Source of the DNA: Escherichia phage AV127
Sequence record: OR352957
Strand: one strand, 5' to 3'
Length of the DNA: 53,045 nucleotides
Positions 1 through 53,045 of this stretch are shown piece by piece. The number at the start of each line of letters is the position of its first letter. Positions within the stretch are counted from its first letter, which is position 1. A program made the translations under genes and the position numbers. The notes below the pieces were generated by a model. That model was not told where the DNA came from. It made no database searches and worked only from the letters and a program-made list of their open reading frames with translations.

Positions 1-227
1 GCGCAAAGTAAGGTATACAATTTCGGCAGTATCATTGTGTACAATTACGCTAATGTCAACGATGTCGCTGGTACGGAAGGTAACAAAGTGCTCTTCAATT
101 ACTTGTTCGTCGGTATTAGGGCTGACGCCCTGAAAGGTCTTGAGTGTGTGAAACATTGGTTGTATCTCCTTAGCAGAATATACGTCTATTATGTATATAA
201 AGGAGGGGAAAGTAAATAGATATAAAT
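1..227. repeat. Terminal redundancy copy 1, identical to 52819-53045; carries the 5' end of the minus-strand gene (1-156) and half of the divergent control region
   Basis: Read directly: bases 1-227 match 52819-53045 base for base. Confidence 0.9.
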
Positions 228-249
228 GTATAAAATACATAAAAGTCTA

Positions 250-279
250 TTTACTCTGGTTTAATAACGTGTATATAAT
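250..279 (+). promoter_or_regulatory. Sigma70-like promoter TTTACT-N18-TATAAT upstream of gene 310
   Basis: TTTACT 250-255, TATAAT 274-279; member of a recurring late promoter family. Confidence 0.45.
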
Positions 280-309
280 GAGAGCCCCACAAACAAGAGG
301 AGAGACTCA

Positions 310-642
310 ATGATAAAGCCAAAACTGTTGCGGCATATTCGCAACGGTATTAAGCTACTCGCTGAAGGCAATGAATATGCCTGCAAGCAACGCGGTATTA
401 CAAAAGTCGGCCTGTTCAATAAAGAGTTACCAACTCGCTACTTTACCAAATCACCACTAACACTCGTACCTGCAGCGGAGTATTATAAAGACCCCGAAGC
501 AGCCCGGGCTAAAATCAAGGAAGGTCTTGACCGACTTGTAGAGGAAGGCTATTTGACAGTACGTCAACACACTGAATCATCTTATTACTACAAGCCAACT
601 TCTAAGGTAACCAGCAATGACAATGACGAGTCAGCCGAGTGA
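310..642 (+). CDS. Hypothetical protein (110 aa)
   Basis: ORF with GAGGAG SD 7 nt upstream of ATG; first gene of the plus-strand block. Confidence 0.5.
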   Translation: MIKPKLLRHIRNGIKLLAEGNEYACKQRGITKVGLFNKELPTRYFTKSPLTLVPAAEYYKDPEAARAKIKEGLDRLVEEGYLTVRQHTESSYYYKPTSKVTSNDNDESAE

Positions 643-3151
643 TATTCTCGGTCTGAAATACTTTAAGCCAGAAGGGATTCCCCAAGTCTTCAAAGATATG
701 AAGCGCTGGGCTATCTTTGAGCTAACGTACGAAGACGAGACTCTTGAAGTTCAATCCAAACCGAAGAAACCTGCAAGAGCGCCATCAGGCCGTTCCTTCA
801 GCACAACAGTGCCTGAAGAGTGGATGACTTTCGACGACGCCCTGACACGTTGTATTCGCAATCGTGAAATGAAGATTAAAGCTGTACAGGGGAATATCAC
901 CTTTGTGCCGGCTTTGGTTGTTCCTCGCCAGTGGTACTTTGTCGACCTGGACAACCATGAAGATAACCCAGACATTGAAGCTACCCACAAAGCGATAATT
1001 GAAGGGACTCGTGGTGCTTATGCCGAGACGTCAATCTCTGGCAAAGGGCAACACATTGCAATCCCTTTACCCTGGACTGCGGCAACATCTAAAGAGAAAG
1101 ACGAACAGCTGGACATCAAAATCCAGAAGGCTGAGATGTTCCTGGTAATGACGGGTAACGTGTTGAGTGAGTTCAATGCTAATCCTGTTTCAGCCCGTGA
1201 ATGGCATGCAGCAATTGAGAAGTTCTTTCTTGAATCAAGCGCACCTGACATTGATGTTGAGTTTGAGCAAGACGAAGACCGTGGCGAAGAGTATGACAAA
1301 GAGCTGTACGAACAGCTAGCCGACAATACTCGCTGGGCTTTAGAACACTATCTGAACGAGCACGCACCCGACGGTGTTGGTGTGAGTAATGACGGTTCTG
1401 AACGTTTAAGCCGTATCTTAAAAGACTTGCTTCGTGTAACCCGTAACTATGAAGTTACACAACGCATCTTCATGGCCAGCAAAGCTGCAGCATACGAAGG
1501 TCGTCGTGCAAGCCGACATAACTTGTCTGTTGACAAGTACCATCAGTGGTTCAGTCGTGTTGGTAAGACTGTGCTGAAAGAGATGCAACGTGATGGCTTA
1601 TTCGTCAAGACCAAGTTTGCTCTTGACATCAACAAAGAGTTAACCAAGAATTCTGGTGTGTCACTGGCTGAGAACGTTGAGTTCAAAGTCAATGACGATA
1701 TTCTGCCATCTGACGTATTTGTCAGGACGGCCCCGTCCGGGTTTAAACGGCTTATTGCTGAGATACAGGATAACATATCTCCGGCTAACAGGGTTAACGA
1801 CTATGCAATTGGCACAGCTCTTAACATCCTGAGCAACTGCGCTGGTCGCAAGTATGTTTGTCCAGTAGGCGGTCATGCTAACTTCCTGGTAACCAACATA
1901 ATTCTTGTGGGTGGTTCATCAATCGGTAAATCGTTGTATACCGAAATGTTCCCACAAATCCAGGCAAGTTTACCTGATACATCACCTATCAGCCTTAATC
2001 GTATTCCAAGGGAGCAGACTTTTGCAACCAGGACGTTTGCTGAACTGATGTCAAACCCGTCATACCATTCAGTCCAGTTGTTCTATCCTGAGTTTGGTCT
2101 GGCTTTAGGTTCAGGCTTACGCATGAATCCTAACAACCCGGACAACTTTCAGAAAGCTCTGATGGACGCTTCAACCAAGCGTAAGGTTGGTGGTATACTG
2201 ACAGGTATCAAACGTGCTAATGCTGACAATGATGTTAAGACAGTAAGCGAACCGTGCTACTCTATCCTGGGCGACTCAACTCAAGAGCTTATTCTTGACA
2301 ACACCCGCAAACAAGACTTCTCAAGTGGCTTTTTGCCCCGCTTCCTGTTCATCCCGAACTATGAGCGAGCGGAGTTTGCCAAACCTGAGAAAGTAGGACG
2401 TCGCCAGCAGATTCGCCGTACATCCTTTTCAAAGGAGCTGATTGAGAAGCTGGAAGCAATCGCTTATGTGAATGCTATCCCGCCTAACGGTAAATTAAGG
2501 CACGACCCGATTCCTATTTACGACGAATCGGATGATGATGACTTCCTGTACGAATACCAGTGCAACATTAATGACATGCGCCAGTATTACAGGGACAACG
2601 AAGTAGCATCCGCCTTTGTGGGCCGAATGGGTGAGTATGTATTCAACATAGCAGCACTGATTGGCTTACTCGACAACTGGGATGCTCCTGTAATGACCAG
2701 GGACAACATCGAATGGGCTTACAAATACGTTCTTCGTTGTATAACCGCCTGGGTCAATAACACAAGCAGGATAGTAGCACCACCAACTACCAACGCCGAA
2801 GTAGTTGATGGCTTCCTCAAAGTCTACAGGGACATTTTGGCCCTTTACACCAAAAGAGGATGGTCTGGCATAGTCAAGCATTATCCTGAGGGTGTTGTGA
2901 GAAGTATCCGAGAAGAACACCTCCAGATGAATGGTTTAAGCATATATGCTATTCGTCAGTCTTTGAGCTGGTTTAAATCAAATTACGGTTTTAATATCAC
3001 AGCTAATAATAAAGTCATTGACGGAATGCTACAGGACATGATTGACCAGGACTATTTAGCGGTTCAAGTATATAAGCCCACAAGAGGCCGAACTGCTAAC
3101 ATTTACTGCCTGACAGAGCGAGGATATGACACTGCTAAGAAACTAAAATAA
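617..3151 (+). CDS. Primase-polymerase (AEP-type) fused to SF3/D5-like helicase
   Basis: 844 aa; FVDLDN acidic motif in N-terminal half; Walker A GGSSIGKS mid-protein; start uncertain (overlaps previous ORF). Confidence 0.6.
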   Translation: MTMTSQPSDILGLKYFKPEGIPQVFKDMKRWAIFELTYEDETLEVQSKPKKPARAPSGRSFSTTVPEEWMTFDDALTRCIRNREMKIKAVQGNITFVPALVVPRQWYFVDLDNHEDNPDIEATHKAIIEGTRGAYAETSISGKGQHIAIPLPWTAATSKEKDEQLDIKIQKAEMFLVMTGNVLSEFNANPVSAREWHAAIEKFFLESSAPDIDVEFEQDEDRGEEYDKELYEQLADNTRWALEHYLNEHAPDGVGVSNDGSERLSRILKDLLRVTRNYEVTQRIFMASKAAAYEGRRASRHNLSVDKYHQWFSRVGKTVLKEMQRDGLFVKTKFALDINKELTKNSGVSLAENVEFKVNDDILPSDVFVRTAPSGFKRLIAEIQDNISPANRVNDYAIGTALNILSNCAGRKYVCPVGGHANFLVTNIILVGGSSIGKSLYTEMFPQIQASLPDTSPISLNRIPREQTFATRTFAELMSNPSYHSVQLFYPEFGLALGSGLRMNPNNPDNFQKALMDASTKRKVGGILTGIKRANADNDVKTVSEPCYSILGDSTQELILDNTRKQDFSSGFLPRFLFIPNYERAEFAKPEKVGRRQQIRRTSFSKELIEKLEAIAYVNAIPPNGKLRHDPIPIYDESDDDDFLYEYQCNINDMRQYYRDNEVASAFVGRMGEYVFNIAALIGLLDNWDAPVMTRDNIEWAYKYVLRCITAWVNNTSRIVAPPTTNAEVVDGFLKVYRDILALYTKRGWSGIVKHYPEGVVRSIREEHLQMNGLSIYAIRQSLSWFKSNYGFNITANNKVIDGMLQDMIDQDYLAVQVYKPTRGRTANIYCLTERGYDTAKKLK

Positions 3152-3162
3152 GTAAGTAAATC

Positions 3163-3204
3163 AAGGGCTTGGGTAATTGTAAAAATCCTAAGCCCTTATT
3201 TTTT
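3163..3204 (+). terminator. Rho-independent terminator after primase-helicase gene
   Basis: AAGGGCTT...AAGCCCTT stem followed by ATTTTTT. Confidence 0.6.
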
Positions 3205-3370
3205 AAGCTTATTTTACAAACTGATTAATATTTAAACTATAATTAAATATATGGGCGATAAGAGTATGATTTTATTACTCTTTTACTAGTCATAATATAT
3301 GGCCTCGATAAATAAAAATAAAGGGGGTAATAAGGGGATACAAGTACCGGATAAAAGGGGGTATATATTT

Positions 3371-3402
3371 ATTTATTATTATTATTATTATTATTTATTA
3401 TT
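3371..3402. repeat. (ATT)n microsatellite in AT-rich intergenic region
   Basis: Read directly: about 10 ATT units with one interruption. Confidence 0.85.
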
Positions 3403-3653
3403 AATTATATTAGAAGTAATAAAAACAGCTACTTAGAGGCGTCTATATGTATGATCCGGTTTATCTCTTTATTAATATCAGAACCGGATGAAAAAAATTT
3501 ACGCCGGTGAAAAATAATAAAAAACCGGACTGATAAATAATTCGTAGGCATGTCTAAAGCCAGGCGTGGCAAGCTTCGGTGATATTTACTATGTTATTGT
3601 ATGTTAGTGTGCGTTATAATATATTTATTATTCAACAGATGAGTTGTGCAACT

Positions 3654-4090
3654 ATGAATCCAATTGTAAAAGTATTTGAAGGTAAAAATATCACATTTTC
3701 ATCAATTAATAGAGGAACCAAAATGGTTCCCCTCATTGTTGTTAAAGGAAGCGATTTAGCTAAAGCGCTAGGTTACAGTCACTCGAAAAAAAACTTTATA
3801 AAAGGTTAGACAGCGATTATAAAATTACTGACGACAAAGGAACAGTATGGGTAACTGAACCAGGTATTTATCAGGCTATATTCGGTTCACATCTTGAATC
3901 AGCTAAAGCATTTCAGCGCTGGGCGTACGAAGAAGTATTCCCAACCATTCGTGGGAATGGTTATTACGTTACACCAGAGCTTCAACCAGCGCTGGATCTA
4001 CTGTCTGATGAAATAGACTTACTCCGTGCGTATGCTACAGCTGACTGTCACGGAAGAGCAAGGCTTAAGTCAAGAATTATGACAGTATGA
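3654..4090 (+). pseudogene. Bro-N domain (antirepressor-like) gene interrupted by a -1 frame change inside an A8 homopolymer (3786-3793)
   Basis: Frame 0 reads ...DLAKALGYSHSKK then stops at 3807; frame -1 continues ...LYKRLDSDYKITDDKGTVWVTEPGIYQAIFGS...AKAFQRWAYEEVFPTIRGNGYYV to stop 4088-4090; together a typical Bro-N domain. Confidence 0.55.
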
Positions 4091-4155
4091 AAAAAACAAG
4101 TAGAAAATGGTAACTCTTTGGACCGCGTAGTCCAGATTTTAAAAGGAAACAGTGC

Positions 4156-4587
4156 ATGGTAAATATTAGAGCGAAGGGCCAAAACTTTGAGCGTAAAATG
4201 GCTAAAAAATTTAATAGCTCGTTCGGATTAACTGTTGAGCGCAATCTTCAACAGTCTATTAATGGCGGGGATGACTTGTTGGGTGTGCCGTTTTTCAGCG
4301 TTGAACTGAAGAAGCACAATACCAAGTCTATCGGAACATGGTGGAGACAGTGTGCGGCATCGGCAAAGGCTCAGAACAAGATGCCAGTGCTTATATACGA
4401 ACTACCAAGAAAACAGCCTACCGTGGTGATGAATAAGGCTGATGTGATTGACTGCTTTCCAAGTGGCACGACTTTTAACGAGGCATCAAATCGCCTCTTT
4501 GTGGGTCTAGTAGAATTAACATGGGAACAATTTTGCCGGGTCTACAACTATTACGTTGCGCCCGGCACTCAGTATCATGTCAATTAA
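4156..4587 (+). CDS. Putative T7 endonuclease I-like Holliday junction resolvase
   Basis: 143 aa; GGDDLLGVPFFSVELKK resembles the PDFLLPNGIFVETK catalytic D...ExK segment of T7 gp3 (recalled, not searched). Confidence 0.4.
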   Translation: MVNIRAKGQNFERKMAKKFNSSFGLTVERNLQQSINGGDDLLGVPFFSVELKKHNTKSIGTWWRQCAASAKAQNKMPVLIYELPRKQPTVVMNKADVIDCFPSGTTFNEASNRLFVGLVELTWEQFCRVYNYYVAPGTQYHVN

Positions 4588-4769
4588 TCTTGTTTCAGCT
4601 CGTCGCAAATAACACGCTGATTTTTGGCAGGTATAATGCCAAGATTTAGCAAGGTGTATGGACTATCGGCGGCACATTGTTCAACGGTAGTCCATTCAGG
4701 TTTGGATTCAACAATTTTGTAACTACAATCATGAGTAGCCACACATGTTGCCAGGATTAAGCCAATCAC
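4584..4769 (-). CDS. Hypothetical small protein (61 aa)
   Basis: ORF track; hydrophobic N-terminus; convergent with 4156-4587. Confidence 0.3.
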   Translation of the reverse strand: MIGLILATCVATHDCSYKIVESKPEWTTVEQCAADSPYTLLNLGIIPAKNQRVICDELKQD

Positions 4770-4944
4770 AAGTAATCACCTTCAACCAGGAACTCAAACA
4801 ACTGGTTGTAAACGTTGCAACCTTTAGCGAAAGAACTTTCAGCAGGTTTACCATCGCGGACGATCATCATATACTCACCGCCATGGATGTCCACCCAGTA
4901 TTGCATGCCACCTTTGACCGGATTACGTTGTAAGAATTTAAACA

Positions 4945-5190
4945 TTATTTGCTCCTTATTCCAAGTTTATTCAATAACCAAATTGTCATGTCAACCCATG
5001 TTAACGGTACAGTTTTCGGGGGTTGATAATCCCAGCAGCTTGCAGTTCTTTGTATTTCTGCTTGGCGCCGCTCCGCTTCGCGTAATACCGCATCGTCAGA
5101 AGTGCCGGCAGAAAAAAGATCGGTAACACCAGATAAATCGCGTTGATTAACACGTCGAGCAATGTCATATAAATCATCCTTAGAAAACAT
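4945..5190 (-). CDS. Hypothetical protein (81 aa)
   Basis: ORF track. Confidence 0.35.
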   Translation of the reverse strand: MFSKDDLYDIARRVNQRDLSGVTDLFSAGTSDDAVLREAERRQAEIQRTASCWDYQPPKTVPLTWVDMTIWLLNKLGIRSK

Positions 5191-5417
5191 AAGCCAATAC
5201 CATAAGAATTATCAGAAAGATCCCAACCAGCTTCCTTATAGCCCGACCTTCAGCATATGCAGGATTCACAACAGAATACTCAACAACATGTTTACAGCGG
5301 ACCATAAGGCCTCCACTTGTGGGTTAATTCAATCATGAGGACTTTTGGCAAATCCTCATTGTTGAATCAATTACCAGCTTTTAATCAAGCCCTGTCAGTA
5401 TCAGGACTTGATTAATA

Positions 5418-5621
5418 TCACTCTATCATTACCTGAACTACTATTATACACTCTTTATTGAAGCGGGTAAACACTTTTCCACCATTGGTGCGTTTAGCCC
5501 CTGCTTTTAGAGCTGACTGGCACCAGATCTGCCACTCCTCAACTGTCAAGAATTTTTGCTCAGCTTTGGGTGGCAATCCATTGGCAAGGTCTACCGTAGT
5601 AAATTTGACTAGTGGCATCAC
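5418..5621 (-). CDS. Hypothetical protein (67 aa)
   Basis: ORF track; 4-nt overlap with upstream ORF suggests coupling. Confidence 0.35.
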   Translation of the reverse strand: MMPLVKFTTVDLANGLPPKAEQKFLTVEEWQIWCQSALKAGAKRTNGGKVFTRFNKECIIVVQVMIE

Positions 5622-6007
5622 TTGACCTCAAATTTTGACTCGTCATATTCCGGATCAGTCACGTCCCGGGTCGCACAATTTTTGATTGCCTCCCAGTAAC
5701 GTTGGGCATCATCGCCATCGACATAAACTGTCCAGTGGCCGTAACCACCTTCAAATCTGTCCCAGGCTTGTTCCCAGACTTTGCCATCTTCCAGCTTGTA
5801 CCAAGTTGGACGACTGTCAAACTCGCGGATTGGATGGTACCCCATCAAAGGATTCATTAGGTCAATAATGTCTTCCCGACTAATCTCCTGGTTCTCCCAC
5901 AACACCATCATGAATTGCTCAAACTTGAAGGCGTTTGGCAGAACTTTGAGGACTTCACCATCACGATATACGGTATAGGTGCCATCTTCGCATTTTGCAC
6001 TATACAT
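5618..6007 (-). CDS. Hypothetical protein (129 aa)
   Basis: ORF track; W/Y/E-rich. Confidence 0.45.
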   Translation of the reverse strand: MYSAKCEDGTYTVYRDGEVLKVLPNAFKFEQFMMVLWENQEISREDIIDLMNPLMGYHPIREFDSRPTWYKLEDGKVWEQAWDRFEGGYGHWTVYVDGDDAQRYWEAIKNCATRDVTDPEYDESKFEVK

Positions 6008-6073
6008 GTTTCTCTCTCCTGTTGATTGTGAATAATTTCAATTGATGGCACTACTTGAGTGCCATCTCAAAAA

Positions 6074-6640
6074 TTACTCAGTTTCTTGTTCTTCAATTTC
6101 AGGTTTTTCTTCAGCTTCAGGTTTTTTGCCTGTTACTGATTTGCCGTCAGTCACTTTACCAGATTTTACATCATTACGGTAGTATGACATATATGATTGG
6201 ACAACACGTTTTGCCCTAATATCATCCGCTTCCATCCCACAGGCTTTCATGGCATCAGCCAGCGCCAATTTGGAATCTTCTTTGTCCATCAAATTGTAAT
6301 CCTTGAATACTGCATAGCAGGTATCTTTGGTTGACGGACCGGATGAAGTTTTGCGGGTGCCACCTGCAGATGCACGTGATGCCGCAACTTTGACCTCTTC
6401 AACTTCCAGTTGGTTAAGCTCATCAAATAGGGCTTTCACCAGCACTTCTTTTGAGTCTTTGACACTTACAGAACTTTCATCATTAAGGGACTTGATCATC
6501 TTAATGATTTGGTTATTGGCAAAGTACTGCAGGCTATCCATCTGCACTACAATAGTCCCAAGGCTTTCAGTAGTCAGACCAGATTTTACAGACTCGACAG
6601 AAAAGGCGGAAGTCAGGTAAACGTAGTTAGTAGCAGTCAT
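6074..6640 (-). CDS. Hypothetical protein (188 aa), acidic C-terminal tail
   Basis: ORF track. Confidence 0.45.
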   Translation of the reverse strand: MTATNYVYLTSAFSVESVKSGLTTESLGTIVVQMDSLQYFANNQIIKMIKSLNDESSVSVKDSKEVLVKALFDELNQLEVEEVKVAASRASAGGTRKTSSGPSTKDTCYAVFKDYNLMDKEDSKLALADAMKACGMEADDIRAKRVVQSYMSYYRNDVKSGKVTDGKSVTGKKPEAEEKPEIEEQETE

Positions 6641-6735
6641 TTTGATGTATCCTCGTCAATAGAATTTTGGTAAGCGCCAATCCCTGGCAAGTAAGTCCAA
6701 ACATGACAACTTTTGTCAAGCTGTCATGATTGAAA

Positions 6736-6915
6736 TCACTTCAATTTGTTAAGTATTTTGGTCAATAGCTCAACTCTTTCTTCCTGGTCAGTAGGGTCAA
6801 AGTTTTCAATTGACTCCTTCCAGTCCTCCAGCAGTTCCTTTTCATTAAATATTGAAATGTCAAGAAATTCAACCAATAACTCAACTTCTTTTTTAGTCAG
6901 TTTCAAATCTTTCAT
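6736..6915 (-). CDS. Small K/E-rich protein (59 aa), missing from the ORF track because it is under 60 aa
   Basis: Hand translation of minus strand: MKDLKLTKKEVELLVEFLDISIFNEKELLEDWKESIENFDPTDQEERVELLTKILNKLK. Confidence 0.35.
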   Translation of the reverse strand: MKDLKLTKKEVELLVEFLDISIFNEKELLEDWKESIENFDPTDQEERVELLTKILNKLK

Positions 6916-6929
6916 CTTGTATGACCCTC

Positions 6930-7079
6930 TTACCCTTGATATTTGACTACTTGCGACTGGATGAAATCAACACAATCTTCCACGTCCATTGATTCAAAGT
7001 CTGGGACTGGTCCATTATTAATGTTGACACACCATAGCCCTTCATTACAATCATACCAAAGCGCGTAGTTGTCTTTCAT
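6930..7079 (-). CDS. Hypothetical small protein (internal ATG start of ORF 6930-7133)
   Basis: AGGAGT SD precedes the internal ATG (MKDNYALWYDCNEG...). Confidence 0.35.
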   Translation of the reverse strand: MKDNYALWYDCNEGLWCVNINNGPVPDFESMDVEDCVDFIQSQVVKYQG

Positions 7080-7296
7080 AATAGTTACTCCTGCTATTAG
7101 TTTCCAGGCGTGGCTACTGCTTCCAATAGCCACTAGTTGAAACTATTACCAGCGTTACTATCAACAAGAAACATGTTACCAAATTGTTAAAGAGCGGTCT
7201 GGTACTATTCGACCAGGTAAAGTTATTATTTGCGCATCTTGACGACGCGCGCCAGACAAGACGCTTGACACATTCATCATTCGTCTTGATGTAATA

Positions 7297-7325
7297 ATTA
7301 TAGGCCAGTCAATCAATGTTGTACA
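7297..7325 (-). promoter_or_regulatory. Sigma70-like promoter TGTACA-N17-TATAAT driving the leftward small-ORF island
   Basis: Minus-strand hexamers read from plus 7320-7325 and 7297-7302. Confidence 0.35.
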
Positions 7326-7370
7326 TAAAAGAATTGCAAGTTTATGCAAGTTTTTAGAAATGATAATCAC

Positions 7371-7889
7371 TTGCGATTGAGAGTGGTTCTCGTATGCAAT
7401 TGATATAGTTTCGCATGTAATTACTCAATCCAAAATGGTCGGCAGGGGTTATAATCACATAGGGGTGCCACTTAAAGGAGCCGGCGAAATTATTTCTAAA
7501 AATATAATTTCAATCTGAATTATAGACGCTTTATGTTATAACGGCCGAAGTAGTTCATACGGTAATTGTATCAATCGCAATAGTTACCATAGTAATCATT
7601 TCAATCGAAATAGGTGCGGCGGGGGGTAATTTCGCAAGGGTGCTACCTGCCAGGAGCCAGCAAAATTTTTTATTTTTTTCTCTATTTTCTCCTTATCAGT
7701 ACCAATCATCATCAGATTGATACGACAGGAGCTAACCTTTTGCCTAACACAATAATAAGTGAAGCCCCTCTAAAATTTTTTTATATTTTTCGGAAATTGT
7801 GTAGACACTCACTAAAAAGTGGTGTACTTTCTCTCCTCCACGCGCTATCATTAATGTGAATCATCAAACGGCCTCACGGTCTCCTACTT
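7371..7889. promoter_or_regulatory. Repeat-rich divergent intergenic region: two ~57-bp direct repeats (7440-7497, 7618-7670) and at least five TCAATYGMAAT-like motifs
   Basis: Read directly; repeats share CGGCRGGGG...GGGTGC...AGGAGCCRGCRAAATT. Confidence 0.5.
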
Positions 7890-8384
7890 GTGGGTAACAT
7901 TATGAAAATTGTTCAATTAGAGCCATATCCGCCTCAATTGGCTATCGTTTGTAGCGAAAAAGAGCACGAAGAGCTCCAAAAACTGATGGATTTGCCTGAT
8001 TTTGGCAACTGGAATGACCGGGAAACGCGTAATGCATCTACCTTTACATTCTCTCGCGTTAACTATCCGTACCTGTTAATCGTCGTCGAACTGTACCACC
8101 CGGACGACCTGAAGTACAACACCATTTCCCACGAAGGCATTCACGTAATGTCGTCGCTGATGAACTATGTAGGACTTAAATACGACCCAGAAAACGACGA
8201 ATGGTACGCATATCAGCATGATTTCATCGTAAATGCCATTTGTAAGGCCCATGATGAGTACCTGGAGCGCAAAAAAGCGCCAAAAACTAAGCCAAAAATC
8301 GAAACAGGTAACCATCCTGCTATACTGCCACAAGACGTTATGAACTCGCTTTTGACTGACACTACTGGGGACTTTTTTAGGTGA
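7890..8384 (+). CDS. Hypothetical protein with HEGIH (HExxH-like) motif
   Basis: ORF track; GTG at 7890 or ATG at 7902, weak SD. Confidence 0.4.
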   Translation: MGNIMKIVQLEPYPPQLAIVCSEKEHEELQKLMDLPDFGNWNDRETRNASTFTFSRVNYPYLLIVVELYHPDDLKYNTISHEGIHVMSSLMNYVGLKYDPENDEWYAYQHDFIVNAICKAHDEYLERKKAPKTKPKIETGNHPAILPQDVMNSLLTDTTGDFFR

Positions 8385-10723: not shown

Positions 10724-11014
10724 ATGGCAAAACCGAAAAAAACCCGTGAGGCAACAGAAGAACTGTTGGCCACGATGCGACGTATCCAGCTGGACCCGTT
10801 GGAAGTTATGCAACGAGCTATCATCCTTGCTGAACGTGAAGACGACTATAAAGCAATGATGGATGGTGCACTGGGCGTTATGCCGTACATGTATCCTAAG
10901 CTGAAAGAGTCCGTTGTCAAAGCAGACATCGACCAGAACTTGTCTGGTAACGGCGTCAACCTGAATATTACAATCGGTGACCAGAAAGTGGTAGATACTA
11001 CTGGGGAAGAGTAA
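10724..11014 (+). CDS. Putative terminase small subunit
   Basis: 96-aa basic N-terminus protein immediately upstream of terminase large subunit. Confidence 0.4.
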   Translation: MAKPKKTREATEELLATMRRIQLDPLEVMQRAIILAEREDDYKAMMDGALGVMPYMYPKLKESVVKADIDQNLSGNGVNLNITIGDQKVVDTTGEE

Positions 11015-11017: not shown

Positions 11018-12466
11018 ATGAATCTTGACTTTCACCTGCATGACAGACAAGGTGCCGCTCTGCAGTCTCAGGCAACTGAGATTCTGTACGGTGGCGCCGC
11101 TGGTGGTGGTAAGTCTCACCTTATGCGGGTAATGTCGATTATCATGTGCTGCATGATACCTGACTTGCAGATTTACCTTTTCCGCCGAAACTATAACGAC
11201 CTTACGGCTAACCACATGGTTGGTCCCACAAGTTATCCTGCCTTGCTGGACGGTATGTGCAAAGCTGGCAAGTGCAAGATTAACTACTCGAGCAACACGA
11301 TTAAATTCTGGAATGGTGCGAACATCAAACTCTGTCACCTCCAGTACGAAAAAGATATTTATACCTACCAGGGTGCGGAGATTCACGTTCTGCTGATGGA
11401 TGAGCTTACTCACTTCACAGAAACGATGTACCGCTTCTTGCGTAACCGTGTCCGACTCGGTGCTCTCAAAGTCCCTGAGAACTTTTTCCGGCCTCTGCCA
11501 CTCATCTTTTGTGGGTCAAACCCCGGTGGTGTAGGTCACAACTGGGTTAAGCGTACTTTCGTAACTGCTGCTCCTCCGATGAAAATCGTTAAGCAGGAAA
11601 AACGCGAAGGTGGTATGGCGCGTCAGTACATACCAGCTAAGATGACTGATAACCCTACGTTGATGGAAAACGACCCTGATTACGGCGACCGTCTTGAAGG
11701 TCTTGGTGACCCGGCTCTTGTTGCGGCGATGAAAGAGGGTGACTGGGATATTGTTGCTGGTGGTGCGCTTGACGACGTATGGTCAACCAAGTGTATTCTG
11801 CCGCGTATGCGTATTCCTAAAGGCTGGACTATCGAACGTTCTCTTGACTGGGGTTCTACTCACCCGTTCTCTGTTGGTATCTGGGCTATCGCAAATGGTG
11901 CGTCGCTTACAGACGACGAAGGCAATGAGTACTTTATTCCGCGTGGTTCCATTATACGTATAGCTGAATGGTATGGGTGCTCTGAAAAAGAAGCTAACAG
12001 GGGCATTAAGTTATCTGCTGCCGAAGTCGCTCAAGGTGTTCTTCGCCTACAGGAAAATCTGCAAGCTGGTGGCTGGATTCAAAGCAACGTTAATCCTGGT
12101 CCGGCTGATAGTCAAATTTATGCGTGCAAGGAAAAAGACGTTGAGACTATCGCGAAGAAAATGGAAGACGAAGGCGTAACCTGGGTCAAGGCCGACAAGT
12201 CACAAGGTTCGAGAATAAATGGCTTAGAGCTATTCCGTCAGCTTCTGAAAAATGTTAAGATGGACGAAACGGAAAAGCCGGGCATTTATTTCATGGAAAA
12301 CTGTCCAGCAGCCATAAACACGTTGCCGGTTCTGCCGCGTGACAAGAACAACACGGAAGATGTCGACACGAACTCTGAAGACCACGTATACGATGACTGT
12401 CGTTACATGGTGTTGCGTGGCATCAACCGTTATACTACCAAGCTCAAAATAAATATGGGACGGTAA
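11018..12466 (+). CDS. terL: Terminase large subunit
   Basis: 482 aa; Walker A GGAAGGGKSH near N-terminus; sits directly before portal. Confidence 0.8.
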   Translation: MNLDFHLHDRQGAALQSQATEILYGGAAGGGKSHLMRVMSIIMCCMIPDLQIYLFRRNYNDLTANHMVGPTSYPALLDGMCKAGKCKINYSSNTIKFWNGANIKLCHLQYEKDIYTYQGAEIHVLLMDELTHFTETMYRFLRNRVRLGALKVPENFFRPLPLIFCGSNPGGVGHNWVKRTFVTAAPPMKIVKQEKREGGMARQYIPAKMTDNPTLMENDPDYGDRLEGLGDPALVAAMKEGDWDIVAGGALDDVWSTKCILPRMRIPKGWTIERSLDWGSTHPFSVGIWAIANGASLTDDEGNEYFIPRGSIIRIAEWYGCSEKEANRGIKLSAAEVAQGVLRLQENLQAGGWIQSNVNPGPADSQIYACKEKDVETIAKKMEDEGVTWVKADKSQGSRINGLELFRQLLKNVKMDETEKPGIYFMENCPAAINTLPVLPRDKNNTEDVDTNSEDHVYDDCRYMVLRGINRYTTKLKINMGR

Positions 12467-12467
12467 A

Positions 12468-25487: not shown

Positions 25488-25910
25488 ATGATCATCGATT
25501 CTTCTGAATGCGTGTTGAGCCTGAATGGTGTTCAGCTGTCCGACTGGGCAGACGGTGCCGATGTCATTGACGTGCAATGGGTGGACCCAGCTTCCACCTA
25601 TCTTGCAGGTGCAGATGGCAATGGCATTCAGATTATGAACCCGTCCAAAGCNNCTATCAAGGTTAAGCAAAATGGTCCGGATGCCAAATGGCTTAACGAC
25701 CAGTACAACCTGCAGCGTAACAACATTCGTGGATTTGTCCCGTTTGTGCTGCAAGCCAAAGACCTGCTAAACCAGGATTTGGCATGGGGCAAAAAAGGTT
25801 ACTTTACCGATGGTTCCCCGTGGACTCGCGGTAACGGCCATAACCCGACTACCTTCGCTATTGTGTTCCACCAAGGTGGTATGCAGTTGACTGAAGGCTT
25901 TGACCAGTAA
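25488..25910 (+). CDS. Putative tail tube protein (contains 2-nt N gap at 25651-25652)
   Basis: 140 aa after sheath-like gene. Confidence 0.5.
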   Translation: MIIDSSECVLSLNGVQLSDWADGADVIDVQWVDPASTYLAGADGNGIQIMNPSKXXIKVKQNGPDAKWLNDQYNLQRNNIRGFVPFVLQAKDLLNQDLAWGKKGYFTDGSPWTRGNGHNPTTFAIVFHQGGMQLTEGFDQ

Positions 25911-29095: not shown

Positions 29096-29511
29096 TGATA
29101 TTTACCACAACNNNNNNNNNNNNNNNNNNNNNNNNNNNNNNNNNNNNNNNNNNNNNNNNNNNNNNNNNNNNTATTTACGACTTGGAACCTACCTCCGAAG
29201 GTAAGCAATCAATATCAATTTCTACCGCTGGATATACGTATAACATTGAGTTGTACTATAACACGGTAGGTCAGCTCTGGCAGGCTACAGTGACTGACAT
29301 ATCAAGTAATGCTGTACTTTGTTCCAGTTATGCTTTACAATATGGGCGTATTGCTTTTGGTAACTGGGACACGCGTATAGCGTTGCTGGTAAGTGACAAA
29401 TCCTCCAGCCGCATCGGTCCTATGACTACAGATGACATGGGAGGACGTTGCAGTGTCTACATCGTCGACAAAACAGCCTACCCGTCAGTTTGGCCGCGCG
29501 TTAAAGCTTGA
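29095..29511 (+). CDS. Hypothetical tail protein interrupted by 60-nt N gap
   Basis: ORF track; N-run 29112-29171 makes frame and length unreliable. Confidence 0.3.
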   Translation: MIFTTXXXXXXXXXXXXXXXXXXXXXIYDLEPTSEGKQSISISTAGYTYNIELYYNTVGQLWQATVTDISSNAVLCSSYALQYGRIAFGNWDTRIALLVSDKSSSRIGPMTTDDMGGRCSVYIVDKTAYPSVWPRVKA

Positions 29512-40559: not shown

Positions 40560-41542
40560 TTATACGGCCATTTGGAGTTTGATGTTTGGCATTGGTTTGT
40601 ACTTCTCAACCATTGGCGCAACATCGGTAGGAGTGAAGTCAAATACTGACACGTCATAAATCGCGTTAATGTCAGGACGACCTTCAAAGTTAGTGTCCAG
40701 TGTAGTATCAGAATTGCTTACGATACGTTGCAGGAAAATCTTTGCCGCATCGATATGATTCTGATAGATGTGATAGTCACCCAACGTAACAGTCATATCA
40801 CCTACCCCAGTACCCAGCTCAGCAGCAATGGTAATCTGCAGCATTTGATGCAACAGAATATCGTGAGGCAGACCCAGAATAACATCCGCGCTACGCATGT
40901 GGAACATCAGCTCTAATTCATTACGGTTGTTAATGAACAGCTGAAAACCATGGTAACAAGGCGGAAGGGCCATGGCGTCCATCTCTTGTGGGTTCCACGC
41001 CGTAATGTACGCCCTGCGGTCAGTAGGCTTAACCTTCAGCGTTTCAATAACATCTTTAAGCTGGTTAGTAAGAACACCATTCTTATAGAAAGGCTTAATC
41101 CATTGCACGCCGTATACCGGACCTAAGTCACGGTTGTCTGGTGTACCCCAACGTTTGTTTGCATCCTGCAGGTTACCTTCCCACCAGTTGCAGCCAAAGC
41201 CTTTGAGCGTGTCGACGTTTGAAATGCCGTTGATAAAGCAGTAAAGCTCAGCAGCAACAGCTTTGATGTTAACAGGTTTAAACACCGGCACCATCAGTTT
41301 GTTGTCGTTGAAAGCCAGTTTAAACGCTGTACCAAAACAACGGCGGGTNNNNNNNNNNNNNNNNNNNNNNNNNNNNNNNNNNNNNNNNNNNNNNNNNNNN
41401 NNNNNNNNNNNNNNNNNNNNNNNNNNNNNNNNNNNNNNNNNNNNNNACCAACACCTGTACGGTCTACAACATCCTCACCTTTACGCAGGATAAAAGAAAT
41501 GATGTCGCTGTAAAGAGAATCGACAGTGCTGTATGTTTTCAT
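40560..41542 (-). CDS. Thymidylate-synthase-fold pyrimidine C5-modifying enzyme, predicted dCMP-directed; interrupted by 98-nt N gap
   Basis: DRTGVG, LGPVYGVQW, DRRAYITAWNPQEMDAMALPPCYHGFQ; Asp in GLPHDILL where ThyA has Asn (GLPFNIAS). Confidence 0.65.
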
Positions 41543-42520: not shown

Positions 42521-42546
42521 TGTATCTCTCCTCTAAAAGATAACTT

Positions 42547-42575
42547 ATTATACCACATCACTCTCTAGTGGTAAA
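42547..42575 (-). promoter_or_regulatory. Early promoter TTTACC-N17-TATAAT with ACCAC...GTGGT inverted repeat overlapping spacer and -10
   Basis: Minus strand reads TTTACCACTAGAGAGTGATGTGGTATAAT. Confidence 0.5.
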
Positions 42576-42601
42576 GCACTTTTTATGCTTCTGGTAAAAA
42601 T

Positions 42602-42630
42602 AAAAAGGACCAGCGTTAACTGGTCCTTTT
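42602..42630 (-). terminator. Bidirectional rho-independent terminator
   Basis: A5-AGGACCA-GCGTTAAC-TGGTCCT-T4. Confidence 0.65.
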
Positions 42631-42639
42631 GGCAGGGTG

Positions 42640-43197
42640 GTGTAAGGAGATACAAGGAATCGCAGTTATGCAACCAGGCAGCGCATATGAGATTGGCTAA
42701 AGGACTGACCGACTTAATCCCCACGACAAGTCAGAAAGGAGGTACCATCAAGTAGCCAATCACATATGCGTTACTTGCTGTGTGCTCTCACCGCGGAAAG
42801 TATAGAGCGTTGCACTTATCATACCGATGGAGTGGCAAAAGCACACAGCAAGTACAACCTTAGTTGTGGTGTCTTAGCACCTGAGTTACTGTGGATAACC
42901 TGCACCCGACGGGTGTCAAAAAGATACGCCAAAACACCACAACTAAAATTGTGACCGCCGTCTACACCAGGCGCCTGGGGTCAAGGTAGCGAGCCAATAC
43001 CCTTTTCAGCGTTGGAGGAATCGAACCTCACACATCACGGCTTTTACCAAATCTCGGTCAGCGAGCAGAATTGAACTGCATTCACTGGACACCCTCACTG
43101 TTTCAACACACCAGGCTTAATTGATTGTTGATAAGAAGAGAGATGTAAGGATGTCCATTGAATGCACCTCCGTAGAGGTGCGTTCAGATCAGCGCTA
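42640..43197 (-). other. Structured noncoding region with three successive long inverted repeats
   Basis: IRs 42681-42698/42754-42770 (17 bp, 1 mismatch), 42772-42786/42840-42854 (15 bp), 42860-42872/42934-42946 (13 bp); palindrome CCAGGCGCCTGG 42967-42978. Confidence 0.5.
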
Positions 43198-43665
43198 TTA
43201 TTCAGCAACTTCTACGTTGTCGCCTTCAATTGCGCCAGCCAGTTTAGCGGCTTCAGCTTTAGCAGCTTCTGCTTTCTGGCGAGCTTTTTCAGCTTTCTCT
43301 TCAGCTTTGCGAATCTGCTCAGCAGCTTTCGCTTCAGCTTTTTCAGCTTTGATGCGTGCACGCTCTTCAGCTTTACGCTGTTTTTCAGCGGCTTTAGCAG
43401 CATCGCGTTCTGCTTTAGCGGTATCAACGCGCTTAGCCAGAACCTTACCAGTGGCTTTACGCCAGTAGGTCAGCTGAGAAGAAACAGTACCACGGGACAT
43501 TTCGGTAGTAGCAACAACTTCGTCCATAACGTCAGAGCTGGACTTGCCTTCTTCGTGGGCTTTGTCAGCCAGGTCCCATACATAACGTGCGCCAGTACCA
43601 GATGCCGGATACAGTACGCCGTTAACTTCTTCTTTACCAGTTACAAAAGTCAGTTTCTCGCTCAT
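43198..43665 (-). CDS. Putative DNA-binding protein with K/A/E-rich histone-H1-like C-terminal tail
   Basis: Internal ATG with GAGGAAAA SD; C-terminal KAAEKQRKAEERARIKAEKAEAKAAEQ repeats. Confidence 0.45.
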   Translation of the reverse strand: MSEKLTFVTGKEEVNGVLYPASGTGARYVWDLADKAHEEGKSSSDVMDEVVATTEMSRGTVSSQLTYWRKATGKVLAKRVDTAKAERDAAKAAEKQRKAEERARIKAEKAEAKAAEQIRKAEEKAEKARQKAEAAKAEAAKLAGAIEGDNVEVAE

Positions 43666-43771
43666 AATTTTTTCCTCGTCTACAGGGCTTAATGTTTGTT
43701 CGTTACGTGAGTTAATATACGTCATTTAAAAGAGAGTGTAAACACCTTTTTTAAACTTTTTTCATTAGTGT

Positions 43772-47056: not shown

Positions 47057-47078
47057 GGTAGTCTCCGTATACGAAAAT

Positions 47079-47094
47079 AGGGGCCGAAGCCCCT
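47079..47094 (-). promoter_or_regulatory. Intercistronic RNA hairpin GGGGC-UUCG-GCCCC between SSB-like gene and dCMP deaminase
   Basis: Same 14-nt core as 40538-40551; lies at the left edge of the tandem duplication. Confidence 0.55.
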
Positions 47095-47769
47095 ATTGAA
47101 TATCTACTCGGCAGGGATTACTCTTCCCAAGGAGCTGCTTCACCGTCATCAGCACCAGGTGCCGTTGCAGTAGCATTCGCCTTCGTTGAAGTACCCGCAC
47201 CTGCACCTACTTTCTTCGTCGTCGATGCAGTTGCTTGAGACTGACCGCCTACTGCAGTAGTTGCTTCAGTTGACGCTTTGTATTCACGAATATCGTTCTG
47301 TGGGTCGTACTCACCGGTCTTGTCAACGCGAATACCTACTTTGCCAGCTACGATACGGTTTTCCAGCATACCAGTAGAAGTCAGTTCAACAATACCCAGA
47401 GCACGGCACAATGCAGACAGTTTGCGCCGAAGCCCCTATTGAATATCTACTCGGCAGGGATTACTCTTCCCAAGGAGCTGCTTCACCGTCATCAGCACCA
47501 GGTGCCGTTGCAGTAGCATTCGCCTTCGTTGAAGTACCCGCACCTGCACCTACTTTCTTCGTCGTCGATGCAGTTGCTTGAGACTGACCGCCTACTGCAG
47601 TAGTTGCTTCAGTTGACGCTTTGTATTCACGAATATCGTTCTGTGGGTCGTACTCACCGGTCTTGTCAACGCGAATACCTACTTTGCCAGCTACGATACG
47701 GTTTTCCAGCATACCAGTAGAAGTCAGTTCAACAATACCCAGAGCACGGCACAATGCAGACAGTTTGCG
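47084..47769. repeat. Tandem direct duplication, two 343-bp units (47084-47426 and 47427-47769)
   Basis: Units read as identical; junction CAGTTTGCG|CCGAAGCCCC. Confidence 0.85.
47118..47411 (-). pseudogene. Truncated duplicate of the SSB-like gene 3' half (97 codons, no proper start)
   Basis: Protein identical to C-terminus of 47461-48006; upstream frame hits a stop at the duplication junction. Confidence 0.55.
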
Positions 47770-48006
47770 ATGACCGATTTCAACAGCTTGTGAGTTAGGG
47801 TTGGAGTAAGTAATCATGTCAAACACAACACGGTTAGCGAACTCACCTTCCTGCACTTTCAAACGCAGGGACAGATAAGAACCGGTGCCTGCTTTAGTCG
47901 GCTTCAGCTCAACCTCTTCAATCATGAAGTTGTACCAGCCTTTCGGGATCGGGTCAAAAGACTGTTGCGGTTCGACGGTAGAGCTGTTGAAGTTTAATTC
48001 AGCCAT
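47461..48006 (-). CDS. Putative ssDNA-binding protein (Sak4-associated type)
   Basis: 181 aa with low-complexity T/A/G linker and acidic-aromatic tail ...DDGEAAPWEE; next to RecA-like ATPase. Confidence 0.4.
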   Translation of the reverse strand: MAELNFNSSTVEPQQSFDPIPKGWYNFMIEEVELKPTKAGTGSYLSLRLKVQEGEFANRVVFDMITYSNPNSQAVEIGHRKLSALCRALGIVELTSTGMLENRIVAGKVGIRVDKTGEYDPQNDIREYKASTEATTAVGGQSQATASTTKKVGAGAGTSTKANATATAPGADDGEAAPWEE

Positions 48007-49228: not shown

Positions 49229-49255
49229 ATTCTCTCTCCTCATGTGTATGAGGAT

Positions 49256-49285
49256 ATTATACACCACTTACATGTGATATGTACA
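49256..49285 (-). promoter_or_regulatory. Early promoter TGTACA-N18-TATAAT with GTGGTG upstream of -10
   Basis: Minus strand reads AAGTGGTGTATAAT. Confidence 0.4.
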
Positions 49286-49288
49286 CTA

Positions 49289-49735: not shown

Positions 49736-49783
49736 AGTACTCTCCAGGGAGGAAGACTGGCGGGCTTGTACCCGCCAAAGTTA

Positions 49784-50689: not shown

Positions 50690-50803
50690 TTCTTGTTTCC
50701 TTGTATACCAGTTTGATTGTATGCCAGAGATATTCCCTGCGCATGTGCTTTATTGCTTAACCGTTAAAGACATTATGTCATTAGTGAGTGGTGACGTACA
50801 CAT

Positions 50804-51094
50804 TTATTTTAAGGCAGAAGTGCAAATAGCATCACACAAACAATAATGAGCACGGTCGTAGTCCTCAAACAGGAACACTTCACCATTGGCGACTACTTCT
50901 GTATCGTTAACATGCAGGTCAATACCCGCATGGATGAGTACGTCCATAGCCTGGTCCTTGTTCTTATACGGATCCCAAATAAGCTGGAAGCCTGACCCAC
51001 AAAGGAGACAACCTTTGAGCTCCGGAAGAGATGACTCTTTCACAGTCACATTACAAATCTTAGCCAGCTTAGCGCGAGAATCGAGAGTGCTCAT
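50804..51094 (-). CDS. Hypothetical Cys-containing protein (96 aa)
   Basis: ORF track; 4-nt overlap with upstream gene. Confidence 0.4.
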   Translation of the reverse strand: MSTLDSRAKLAKICNVTVKESSLPELKGCLLCGSGFQLIWDPYKNKDQAMDVLIHAGIDLHVNDTEVVANGEVFLFEDYDRAHYCLCDAICTSALK

Positions 51095-51393
51095 TTACAT
51101 TTACCTTTACATTTGTGTGGAGGTGTATATGTTTTCTTCGGTACGCCGAACATGGCGGCATAGGTACCGACTTCTTTCTTTGTTGGCTTATCCACAATCT
51201 CGTCGGCCACGATAAAGTCTGGTCTGAGGGCACGACCTGTACAGCCAAAGACTTCAGCCGCTCTTTTCTCAACAGGAGTAAAGTCAATAACCAGCTCTTT
51301 GCCTATCAGACTTTCTTTGAACTTGTCAAATAGCCATTTGTCACGCGGACCAAGATTGCCCATAAACATAACATGCATCTGCTTATTGCCCAT
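51091..51393 (-). CDS. Hypothetical protein (100 aa)
   Basis: ORF track. Confidence 0.4.
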   Translation of the reverse strand: MGNKQMHVMFMGNLGPRDKWLFDKFKESLIGKELVIDFTPVEKRAAEVFGCTGRALRPDFIVADEIVDKPTKKEVGTYAAMFGVPKKTYTPPHKCKGKCK

Positions 51394-51461
51394 GGATGAT
51401 ATACCCCGTTATTTGTGTTGCCAGGTACAAGCCGTATACCACACACCCAACTAGTATGGCA

Positions 51462-51761
51462 TCAAGAATCAGATGAGCTATCTTCACGTTTGACTACCAC
51501 GTTACGGCTGTTAACCACTTCCAGGCTAATACCATCATCTTTGTGGGCTACACGAATAAATGCAACACCTTCGAGTTGTGCCTGTTCAATAGCTTTATTC
51601 AGCACGGCATTATCCTGCACCATATGACGTACACGAGGAAGGATATTGCAAAGTGGTTCCATCTCGTCCATTCCTGCAGTACGCATAATTGACTTGAGAA
51701 TGCCGAGGTGGTGACGGTAACGGTCTTCAACATTATACTTCTTGCCGTTATGCTTTAACAT
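51462..51761 (-). CDS. Hypothetical protein (start at internal ATG)
   Basis: GGAGG SD before ATG 51761 (MLKHNGKK...). Confidence 0.45.
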   Translation of the reverse strand: MLKHNGKKYNVEDRYRHHLGILKSIMRTAGMDEMEPLCNILPRVRHMVQDNAVLNKAIEQAQLEGVAFIRVAHKDDGISLEVVNSRNVVVKREDSSSDS

Positions 51762-51769
51762 GAAAGCCT

Positions 51770-51799
51770 CCAAAAGTCAGGGGGCTTGTGCTAAGCCCC
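51770..51799 (-). terminator. Hairpin GGGGCTT-AGCAC-AAGCCCC plus U-tract, possible attenuating terminator
   Basis: Read directly on minus strand; overlaps SD of the next gene. Confidence 0.35.
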
Positions 51800-51814
51800 G
51801 TTTAATTACTCGGC

Positions 51815-52255
51815 TTATTCCGTATCTGCCGGTGTGAATGTTACAGTCGGAATACCTGGTGAAGTCTTCACAACAGGGTCGACGATAGCCAGCTGTTCTG
51901 GTGTCAGGTTACGATACGCAGTAACTGACATTTCGTACTTGGTTTTAAACAGCTTGGCAACAACAGTCTTCGGTAACTTCTTCATTACGTCAGGCACAAG
52001 CTTCTGATCAAGTGAGCGGTTAACCTTCTGCTCAACCTTGAGTTTACCAGGTACGCCATGCATGCTGAACTCAACCGTTTGTGTACCTTCTTTACCGCGG
52101 TTGATAATCATGTCGCGTTCAAGACGAGCCTTAATGGTCCGGCGCAACGTCTCCTGGTCAGCTTTCGCTTGTGCCATCCAGCGGTTCAGATTCGCCAGCT
52201 TGTCGTACAGCTGTTCCGTGTCCATCGATTCCAGTTCTTGTGGGGTCAGTGCCAT
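51815..52255 (-). CDS. Hypothetical protein (start at internal ATG)
   Basis: GAGGAAA SD before ATG 52255 (MALTPQELESMD...). Confidence 0.45.
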   Translation of the reverse strand: MALTPQELESMDTEQLYDKLANLNRWMAQAKADQETLRRTIKARLERDMIINRGKEGTQTVEFSMHGVPGKLKVEQKVNRSLDQKLVPDVMKKLPKTVVAKLFKTKYEMSVTAYRNLTPEQLAIVDPVVKTSPGIPTVTFTPADTE

Positions 52256-52526
52256 CAGTTGTTTCCTCAGGTTGCATGTGTATAGTTGCACCGATCAGTA
52301 AGCAATAGTTATTGAACATTGTACGTAGGGCTTGGCCCGCAGCAATATCCGTTACGTCTATTATACCACTTTTAGTGGTGACGCGTAAAGCTTTTTCTTT
52401 CTTTGTTTTTTCCACGAATGCAATGCTGATGATTTCTTCCGCATGGATTACGTGGATGGTACCTGCAAACTCACCAGTCTTAGCTGGCGCCTGGTACACT
52501 AACGACATAGACGGTTGGTTACTCAC
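52158..52526 (-). CDS. Hypothetical protein (122 aa); its 3' part overlaps the next promoter and gene
   Basis: ORF track; AGGAG before GTG 52526; true extent uncertain. Confidence 0.3.
   Translation of the reverse strand: MSNQPSMSLVYQAPAKTGEFAGTIHVIHAEEIISIAFVEKTKKEKALRVTTKSGIIDVTDIAAGQALRTMFNNYCLLIGATIHMQPEETTDGTDPTRTGIDGHGTAVRQAGESEPLDGTSES
52350..52379 (-). promoter_or_regulatory. Early promoter TTTACG-N18-TATAAT with CACCAC...GTGGT inverted repeat
   Basis: Minus strand reads TTTACGCGTCACCACTAAAAGTGGTATAAT. Confidence 0.45.
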
Positions 52527-52536
52527 TTAATTGCTC

Positions 52537-52974
52537 CTATTTATATAAGTCCATCCAGTTACGATACTCGTCATAAAACCGGTCAAACTCGTTTTTGGTG
52601 AGTGCAATAGCAACACCATTTACCAGATGCATGGTTCGTGTTTTGATGTTGACATACATGACATTGCTGTACGGAAATAAGCTACCGTCATTGTCAGTGA
52701 AATAAGTAGGTGTAATATGAAGCGCATCACGCAATGCAACCAGTGATTCAACAGCTTCAGCGTGCCATTCACGTTTGAAGGTCATGCAAGGCGGTGCACC
52801 GTCTTCGTCCTGGGTACCGCGCAAAGTAAGGTATACAATTTCGGCAGTATCATTGTGTACAATTACGCTAATGTCAACGATGTCGCTGGTACGGAAGGTA
52901 ACAAAGTGCTCTTCAATTACTTGTTCGTCGGTATTAGGGCTGACGCCCTGAAAGGTCTTGAGTGTGTGAAACAT
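52537..52974 (-). CDS. Hypothetical protein (145 aa), first gene of the minus-strand early block
   Basis: AAGGAG SD 8 nt before ATG; 5' end lies in the terminal repeat (also present as 1-156). Confidence 0.5.
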   Translation of the reverse strand: MFHTLKTFQGVSPNTDEQVIEEHFVTFRTSDIVDISVIVHNDTAEIVYLTLRGTQDEDGAPPCMTFKREWHAEAVESLVALRDALHITPTYFTDNDGSLFPYSNVMYVNIKTRTMHLVNGVAIALTKNEFDRFYDEYRNWMDLYK

Positions 52975-53045
52975 TGGTTGTATCTCCTTAGCAGAATATA
53001 CGTCTATTATGTATATAAAGGAGGGGAAAGTAAATAGATATAAAT
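52819..53045. repeat. Terminal redundancy copy 2 (direct repeat of 1-227)
   Basis: Exact identity to window start; unit length 52,818 bp. Confidence 0.9.

Follow-up and report, generated by a model that had tools for sequence, protein, structure and literature searches.

We found that the 227-bp repeat at the ends of the Escherichia phage AV127 record is very probably the untrimmed overlap of a pseudo-circular contig. The contig would come from a phage whose ends are fixed and carry a long direct terminal repeat (DTR), not from one with a short DTR or a permuted headful genome. Judged from the aligned ends of its relatives, the ends of AV127 virion DNA are almost certainly fixed, with a DTR of ~4,153 bp at 3506-7658. 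The coordinates of the main features are given in Table 1.

The window is the whole stretch of DNA that was analysed (OR352957, 53,045 nt). By direct comparison, positions 1-227 and 52819-53045 were identical at 227/227 bases, as the first-pass annotation had reported. The longest prefix equal to a suffix of the window is 227 bp, and a repeat search of the window also recovered this pair. The end repeat does not arise by chance, because an exact 227-mer occurs twice in 53 kb. No standard de Bruijn k equals 227, and this counts against an assembly overlap.

The ORF and GC check agreed with the first-pass description of the repeat as covering the 5' end of a minus-strand gene and part of an AT-rich divergent region. 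The minus-strand ORF (52537-52974) encodes 145 aa, and its ATG at 52974 corresponds to position 156 in the left copy. The intergenic region (157-309) has a GC content of 31% and lies upstream of a plus-strand ORF (310-642). The primase ORF (617-3151; 844 aa) follows. The start of the 227-bp repeat falls within coding sequence. The contig breaks off within a 45-nt palindromic, operator-like element of the divergent control region (211-255 in left-copy coordinates; fold z-score of -3.3). A hairpin near 52831-52860 did not fold significantly (z -0.5). That small hairpins at the contig ends caused the break points is speculation. No conserved terminus-like block was found at window position 1 or 227.

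Table 1. Features of the AV127 window and ends of related records mapped onto it. A caret marks a DTR boundary or predicted cut.
Feature	Position	Strand	Remarks
Left repeat copy	1-227		Minus-strand gene, first 52 codons (1-156); divergent intergenic region, 71 bp
Left-terminus site	3455-3530	+	...AACCGGATGAAAAAAATTTACGCC^GGTGAAAAATAATAAAAAACCGGA; predicted cut between 3505 and 3506
SB2 record, end	3504		
CF2 record, start	15 nt upstream of 3506		
AEV23 record, start	8 nt downstream of 3506		
PEA2-3 record, break	12 nt downstream of 3506		
Predicted virion long DTR	3506-7658	+	4,153 bp, single copy in assembly; from Sz/fHy-Eco03 boundary alignment
PDDEXK endonuclease/resolvase-like gene	4156-4587		Inside predicted DTR; Pfam PDDEXK_15 match
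Block of small genes	4584-7370	-	Inside predicted DTR
Right-terminus site	7620-7690	+	...CCTGCCAGGAGCC^AGCAAAATTTTTTATTTTTTT; 7658 is the predicted last DTR base
Putative small terminase subunit (TerS)	10724-11014	+	96 aa; 84% to annotated S144 TerS, 100% to SB2_0018
Large terminase subunit (TerL)	11018-12466	+	482 aa; 99.8% to SB2, 95.4% to S144, 82.8% to fHy-Eco03 gp19
60-N scaffold gap	29112-29171		Stands for 36 bp in SB2
98-N scaffold gap	41349-41446		Inside thymidylate synthase gene; flanks adjacent in SB2, nothing missing
Exact tandem duplication	47083-47769		Copies 47083-47426 and 47426-47769; period 343 bp
Right repeat copy	52819-53045		Within complete gene 52537-52974 (-) and start of intergenic region

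AV127 belongs to the genus Rosemountvirus by nucleotide identity. In a megablast search against deposited phage genomes, it was 93-98% identical to Rosemountvirus myophages of Salmonella and E. coli. The matching genomes include SB2, SPLA11, BP63, SE13, yarpen and swi3, and identity to SB2, SPLA11 and BP63 was 95-98%. Match coverage was 80-100% over the first 20 kb and 100% over the junction region. The closest relative is SB2 (OP745622; ~98%), which is collinear over its full length. The window had been described as one genome unit, and its collinearity with complete relatives over the whole length confirms this. Scans of the window for tRNAs and for Rfam families found none.

The circular junction was examined with a 3-kb query, which contained the last 1,500 unique bases and the first 1,500. 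It was matched contiguously by 41 relatives, in which the 227-bp region is single copy and internal. Since 41 records are contiguous across it, the junction is ordinary internal sequence in the relatives. Across the genus, the public records have many different start points, and that of SE13 is only 35-45 nt from the window start.

Termini have been studied in several relatives. For fHy-Eco03 (MW602648), PhageTerm returned 3,699-bp direct terminal repeats that contain 11 genes (PMC8145870). According to its authors, the termini were checked with restriction digestion and by comparison to related phages (PMC8145870). They classed fHy-Eco03 with the Rosemountviruses and noted that the BP63 record is without the repeat (PMC8145870). 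Restriction digests of S144, from the sister genus Loughboroughvirus, gave extra defined bands incompatible with a circular map, and mapping placed a physical end between gene clusters E and A (PMC7432712). Fast and slow cooling did not change the patterns, and cohesive ends were excluded (PMC7432712). The S144 authors inferred short, not long, direct repeat ends (PMC7432712). For vB_SenM-1, a Rosemountvirus, the PhageTerm call was "COS" (PMC7503781). The last two reports count against a long DTR. The S144 paper names phage 9g as the nearest outgroup by terminase (PMC7432712), and read pile-ups of 9g gave a direct terminal repeat at a defined physical end (PMC4276943). The AEV23 paper gives a 3,915-bp DTR for that phage.

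Two deposited records contain both copies of a long repeat. The fHy-Eco03 record has an exact, annotated 3,699-bp repeat at both ends. The record of vB_SalM_Sz (Sz; PP236111), a linear Rosemountvirus genome of 57,020 bp, has an exact 4,263-bp end repeat, in which genes 1-13 recur as genes 76-88. The left DTR boundaries of the two records align to one window column, 3506, with the sequence ACGCC^GGTGAAAAA. Their right DTR boundaries also align to one column, 7658, with the sequence GGAGCC^AGCAAAATTTT. Both columns sit inside conserved sequence blocks, and the positions are syntenic.

The left boundary context in the window is ...AAAAAAATTTACGCC^GGTGAAAAATAATAAAAAACCGGA. The predicted cut is flanked by four CCGG-containing blocks, and the site has a fold z-score of -3.3. 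The left block is conserved in Sz, fHy-Eco03, S144, AEV23, CF2, PEA2-3 and SB2. The S144 block is diverged but homologous (CTGCC^GGCGGAAAA); it was recovered by alignment and was missed by a strict regular expression. The Sz and fHy-Eco03 records begin exactly at 3506. With the independent CF2, PEA2-3, AEV23 and SB2 records, six in all have ends within 15 nt of this position. The AEV23 record does not contain two DTR copies, and its far end carries IS5-transposase and methyltransferase genes; only its start point is informative on termini.

The right-terminus site is situated where the minus-strand block and a Ku-like gene at 7890 diverge, in the gap between them. Its motif occurs once in the window. 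The S144 "E/A" gap that contains the mapped physical end is the homologue of window gap 7371-7889, which holds 7658.

The gene order around the predicted DTR is primase, a spacer of ~350 bp (29% GC), left boundary, PDDEXK/resolvase-like gene, minus-strand block, right boundary and Ku-like gene. The terminase genes lie downstream (Table 1). The putative TerS had no Pfam match, and its identity to relatives was 75-100%. TerL had a weak, sub-threshold Pfam match to Terminase_6N, a T4-type family. Because this match is below threshold, the packaging type was judged by identity to characterised relatives and not by terminase family. The homologous terminase, together with conserved, syntenic sequences at both DTR boundaries, points to fixed ends and a long DTR.

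In phages with fixed ends and a DTR, packaging restores the terminal repeat at both ends of the molecule. By analogy with the relatives, AV127 virion DNA would be linear and non-permuted, with fixed ends and a DTR of ~4.15 kb. Its terminase would recognise and cut concatemers at ...GCC^GGYG-A-rich (3505/3506) and at ...GCC^AGC-T-rich (7658/7659). Both predicted cuts fall after GCC and before RGC. Every packaged genome would then have the segment between the cut sites at its two ends. The packaged DNA (~56.5 kb) is predicted to begin GGTGAAAAATAAT, to end CCTGCCAGGAGCC, and to carry 3506-7658 at both ends. Throughout the Rosemountvirus/Loughboroughvirus group, the terminase may cut at the CCGG-flanked site at 3506 (GCC^GGYG) and at the site at 7658 (GCC^AGC, then a T-run). 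This group-wide reading of the aligned boundaries is much more likely than a 227-bp DTR specific to AV127.

A long DTR may also account for the shape of the AV127 assembly. In a scaffolded short-read assembly, two identical DTR copies would collapse into one. The assembly path would then close into a circle, and the contig would close on itself because the DTR had collapsed. The circular contig would be opened at an arbitrary point, with 227 bp of overlap left untrimmed. The 227-bp repeat would therefore be a property of the assembly and not of the DNA molecule. Its distance from the conserved left terminus is 3.5 kb.

The SB2 record contains its own exact end overlap, of 264 bp, at window 3242-3504. 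Because the SB2 overlap lies elsewhere, the end repeats are not conserved in position. A real DTR would hold its position between relatives that are ~98% identical, which argues against a real DTR of 227 bp. An untrimmed overlap is consistent with the exact copies, with the contiguity of relatives across the junction, with similar join errors in the same scaffold, and with an end overlap at a non-conserved position in a relative.

The window is a scaffold and not a finished sequence, because it contains N runs and a tandem duplication. The three N runs are at 25652-25653, 29112-29171 and 41349-41446. Each copy of the tandem duplication comprises the 3'-terminal 309 nt of the SSB gene and 35 nt downstream. 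The SSB locus is single copy in 12/12 listed relatives, including SB2, where a 1,501-bp query spans 1,158-1,161 bp. By translation, the SSB ORF is intact and 100% identical to that of SB2; only its 3' part is repeated. The 343-bp duplication is likely an unmerged contig overlap, an artefact of the same kind as the end repeat. The unique length of 52,818 bp in the first-pass annotation was arithmetically correct, but the figure is inflated by the duplication and by N-run scaffold artefacts. After correction, the unique length is ~52,353 bp. The predicted packaged length is ~56.5 kb, against 57,020 bp in Sz and 57,011 bp in fHy-Eco03.

The first-pass annotation had offered two readings of the repeat. 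One was a true DTR of 227 bp. With such T7-like fixed ends, the window would represent the complete virion DNA. In favour of this, an exact copy of the repeat lies at either end of a genome of full length, short direct repeat ends were proposed by the S144 authors for the sister genus (PMC7432712), and the SE13 record opens very near the window start. The virion ends reported for close relatives map to 3506 and 7658 and not to 1, 227 or 52819, and this holds for phages that are 93-98% identical to AV127. The mapped S144 end also lies elsewhere, in the homologue of 7371-7889. The repeat begins mid-gene and is not a discrete non-coding unit, the positions 1 and 227 have no conserved boundary block and are not homologous to the termini of relatives, 41 relatives are contiguous there, and a second exact unmerged overlap is present in the same scaffold. 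A genuine short DTR is therefore hardly credible. It is just as implausible that AV127 packages its DNA with a 227-bp DTR whose cut falls in an early gene and its control region, unlike its 93-98% relatives. If true, the packaging site and repeat length would have switched within the genus with the terminase unchanged.

The other reading was that a permuted genome had been assembled as a circle and an overlap had remained. Its first part, the assembly overlap, is supported; its second part, permutation through headful (pac) packaging of a terminally redundant genome, is not. Records of the genus that open at many positions and the weak TerL match to Terminase_6N would fit headful packaging. 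The fixed termini of fHy-Eco03, from PhageTerm and restriction digestion (PMC8145870), the extra defined bands of S144 (PMC7432712) and the defined physical end with a DTR in the outgroup 9g (PMC4276943) argue against it. So do the two records with exact long DTRs (3.7-4.3 kb) at the same boundaries and the six record ends clustered at one site. Judged on the relatives, the ends are fixed and not permuted, and headful packaging is very unlikely. Cohesive (cos) ends would leave the overlap an artefact, of a contig circularised via annealed or ligated cos ends. The single "COS" call, for vB_SenM-1, favours them (PMC7503781), but that record starts within a gene close to the DNA polymerase genes, which suggests a weak call. 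The S144 patterns were the same with fast and slow cooling (PMC7432712), and fHy-Eco03 and Sz have documented long DTRs. Cos ends are extremely unlikely. The untrimmed overlap of a fixed-end, long-DTR genome is the reading we retain.

The long-DTR end structure is already published for a relative, the 227-bp feature is very probably an assembly artefact and the genus is known. The agreement of terminus positions at the base level across Rosemountvirus and Loughboroughvirus records is mildly new. Given these shared positions, most deposited genomes of the group, BP63 included, lack their ~4-kb repeat. No new biology follows from the 227-bp repeat itself.

Viral contigs are commonly declared complete on the basis of "DTR" calls made from sequence alone. 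Such a call on AV127 would be right about completeness and wrong about the molecule. The ends would differ, and the predicted repeat is ~4.15 kb and not 227 bp. The predicted sizes are ~56.5 kb packaged and ~52.35 kb unique, not 52.8 kb. Rosemountviruses are under development for biocontrol of Salmonella and E. coli, so correct termini matter. They bear on annotation, the choice of genome origin and the quality control of therapeutic stocks. They also bear on the copy number of roughly 12 small genes in the predicted repeat.

T5/SPO1-class long-DTR phages have fixed ends and a kilobase-scale exact repeat with small genes, and they collapse to a pseudo-circular short-read assembly. The predicted AV127 repeat (~4 kb) is shorter than that of T5 (roughly 10 kb), and the likeness is one of class, with no sequence kinship claimed. 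S144 resembles AV127 in its TerL (95.4%), its conserved left-terminus block and a physical end within the homologue of gap 7371-7889. It differs in belonging to a sister genus (~78% nucleotide identity), and only one end was mapped, with short repeats inferred. SB2 is collinear with AV127 over the whole genome, has a TerL that is 99.8% identical, and also contains an untrimmed exact end overlap. Unlike that of AV127, the 264-bp SB2 overlap ends at the left DTR boundary, and SB2 has neither the SSB tandem duplication nor N gaps.

The closest matches in end structure are Sz and fHy-Eco03. Sz is 81-95% identical to AV127 at the nucleotide level across the aligned ends, with the lowest values towards the right DTR edge. 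Its boundary positions are homologous and its boundary sequences are nearly identical to those of AV127. It lacks ~530 bp of the low-GC segment 3548-4155. Around its ends, fHy-Eco03 shares the gene order of AV127, with a small ORF, a primase, a DTR with a resolvase-like gene and minus-strand small genes, and then a Ku-like gene. Its TerL is 82.8% identical, both of its DTR boundaries align to 3506 and 7658, and the flanking blocks are conserved. It differs from AV127 in nucleotide identity (~73-79%) and in DTR length (3,699 bp versus the predicted 4,153 bp). The fHy-Eco03 record holds both DTR copies, whereas the AV127 window holds one.

The predicted left terminus of the direct terminal repeat (DTR) is flanked by four CCGG-containing blocks. 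These blocks are conserved in the related phages fHy-Eco03 and AEV23 and in S144, a member of the sister genus Loughboroughvirus. They are candidate terminase recognition elements. Within the predicted DTR lies a low-GC segment that contains ORF 3579-3809. It is present in SB2, the closest relative, but is reduced to approximately 76 bp in Sz and is similarly short in PEA2-3. The segment is a variable insertion/deletion region adjoining the left terminus.

Coordinates of sequence features in the AV127 window
Feature	Window position	Sequence
Near-perfect palindrome, 45 nt	211-255	AGTAAATAGA...ATGTATAAAATACAT...TCTATTTACT
Four CCGG-containing blocks	3455-3530	TCCGGTTT, AACCGGATG, CGCCGGTGA, AACCGGACT
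Low-GC segment, ~600 bp, within predicted DTR	3548-4155	
N runs	25652-25653, 29112-29171, 41349-41446	
Inverted repeat, 25 nt, in ORF-free gap	42854-42878 + 42928-42952	
Three imperfect repeats, 54 nt each, inside ORF 43198-43725	43222-43416	
Exact tandem duplication, 343-bp period	47083-47769	

The ends of the relatives' records were placed on the window. SB2 (OP745622) was deposited as a "complete genome" and carries its own exact 264-bp end overlap, which corresponds to window 3242-3504. The final base of that record is 1 to 2 nt upstream of the predicted left DTR boundary. The ends of the SE13 record (MK770411) correspond to window 52774-52784, which is 35 to 45 nt from the window's own opening point. 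The closeness of these two points may be a coincidence, or it may mark a reproducible assembly break point. No sequence feature that would account for this closeness was found. The palindrome sits in the control region from which the minus-strand gene and ORF 310-642 diverge. It has a fold z-score of -3.3 and looks like an operator. The right end of the contig (227) falls inside it.

The tandem duplication was found at the SSB gene. Its unit consists of 309 nt from the 3' end of the gene and the hairpin downstream, and it is single copy in all relatives examined. The SSB gene (ORF 47461-48006) is intact, and the extra ORF 47118-47411 is the repeated fragment of it. The duplication is probably an unmerged join of two contig ends. 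The gap sizes in the scaffold are unreliable. The second N run uses 60 N for 36 bp. The third (98 N) breaks the thymidylate synthase gene, although in SB2 its two flanks abut with nothing between them.

The minus-strand replication cluster contains an ORF-free gap of approximately 680 bp (42521-43197), which the three 54-nt repeats adjoin.

Three public records (PP583539, KY608966, and OR810919) appear to be mislabelled or chimeric. The one named "Listeria phage 220426122051" has 95% identity to the Rosemountvirus of the window, and the record of CF2 places it in Tequatrovirus. In the AEV23 record, the far end has genes for an IS5 transposase and a methyltransferase, which look like host DNA.

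A published PhageTerm analysis assigned the Rosemountvirus vB_SenM-1 to "COS" (PMC7503781). The record of this phage was opened inside a gene. The assignment is at odds with the evidence for a long DTR in fHy-Eco03 and Sz. It also disagrees with the S144 cooling test, in which restriction patterns were compared after fast and slow cooling.
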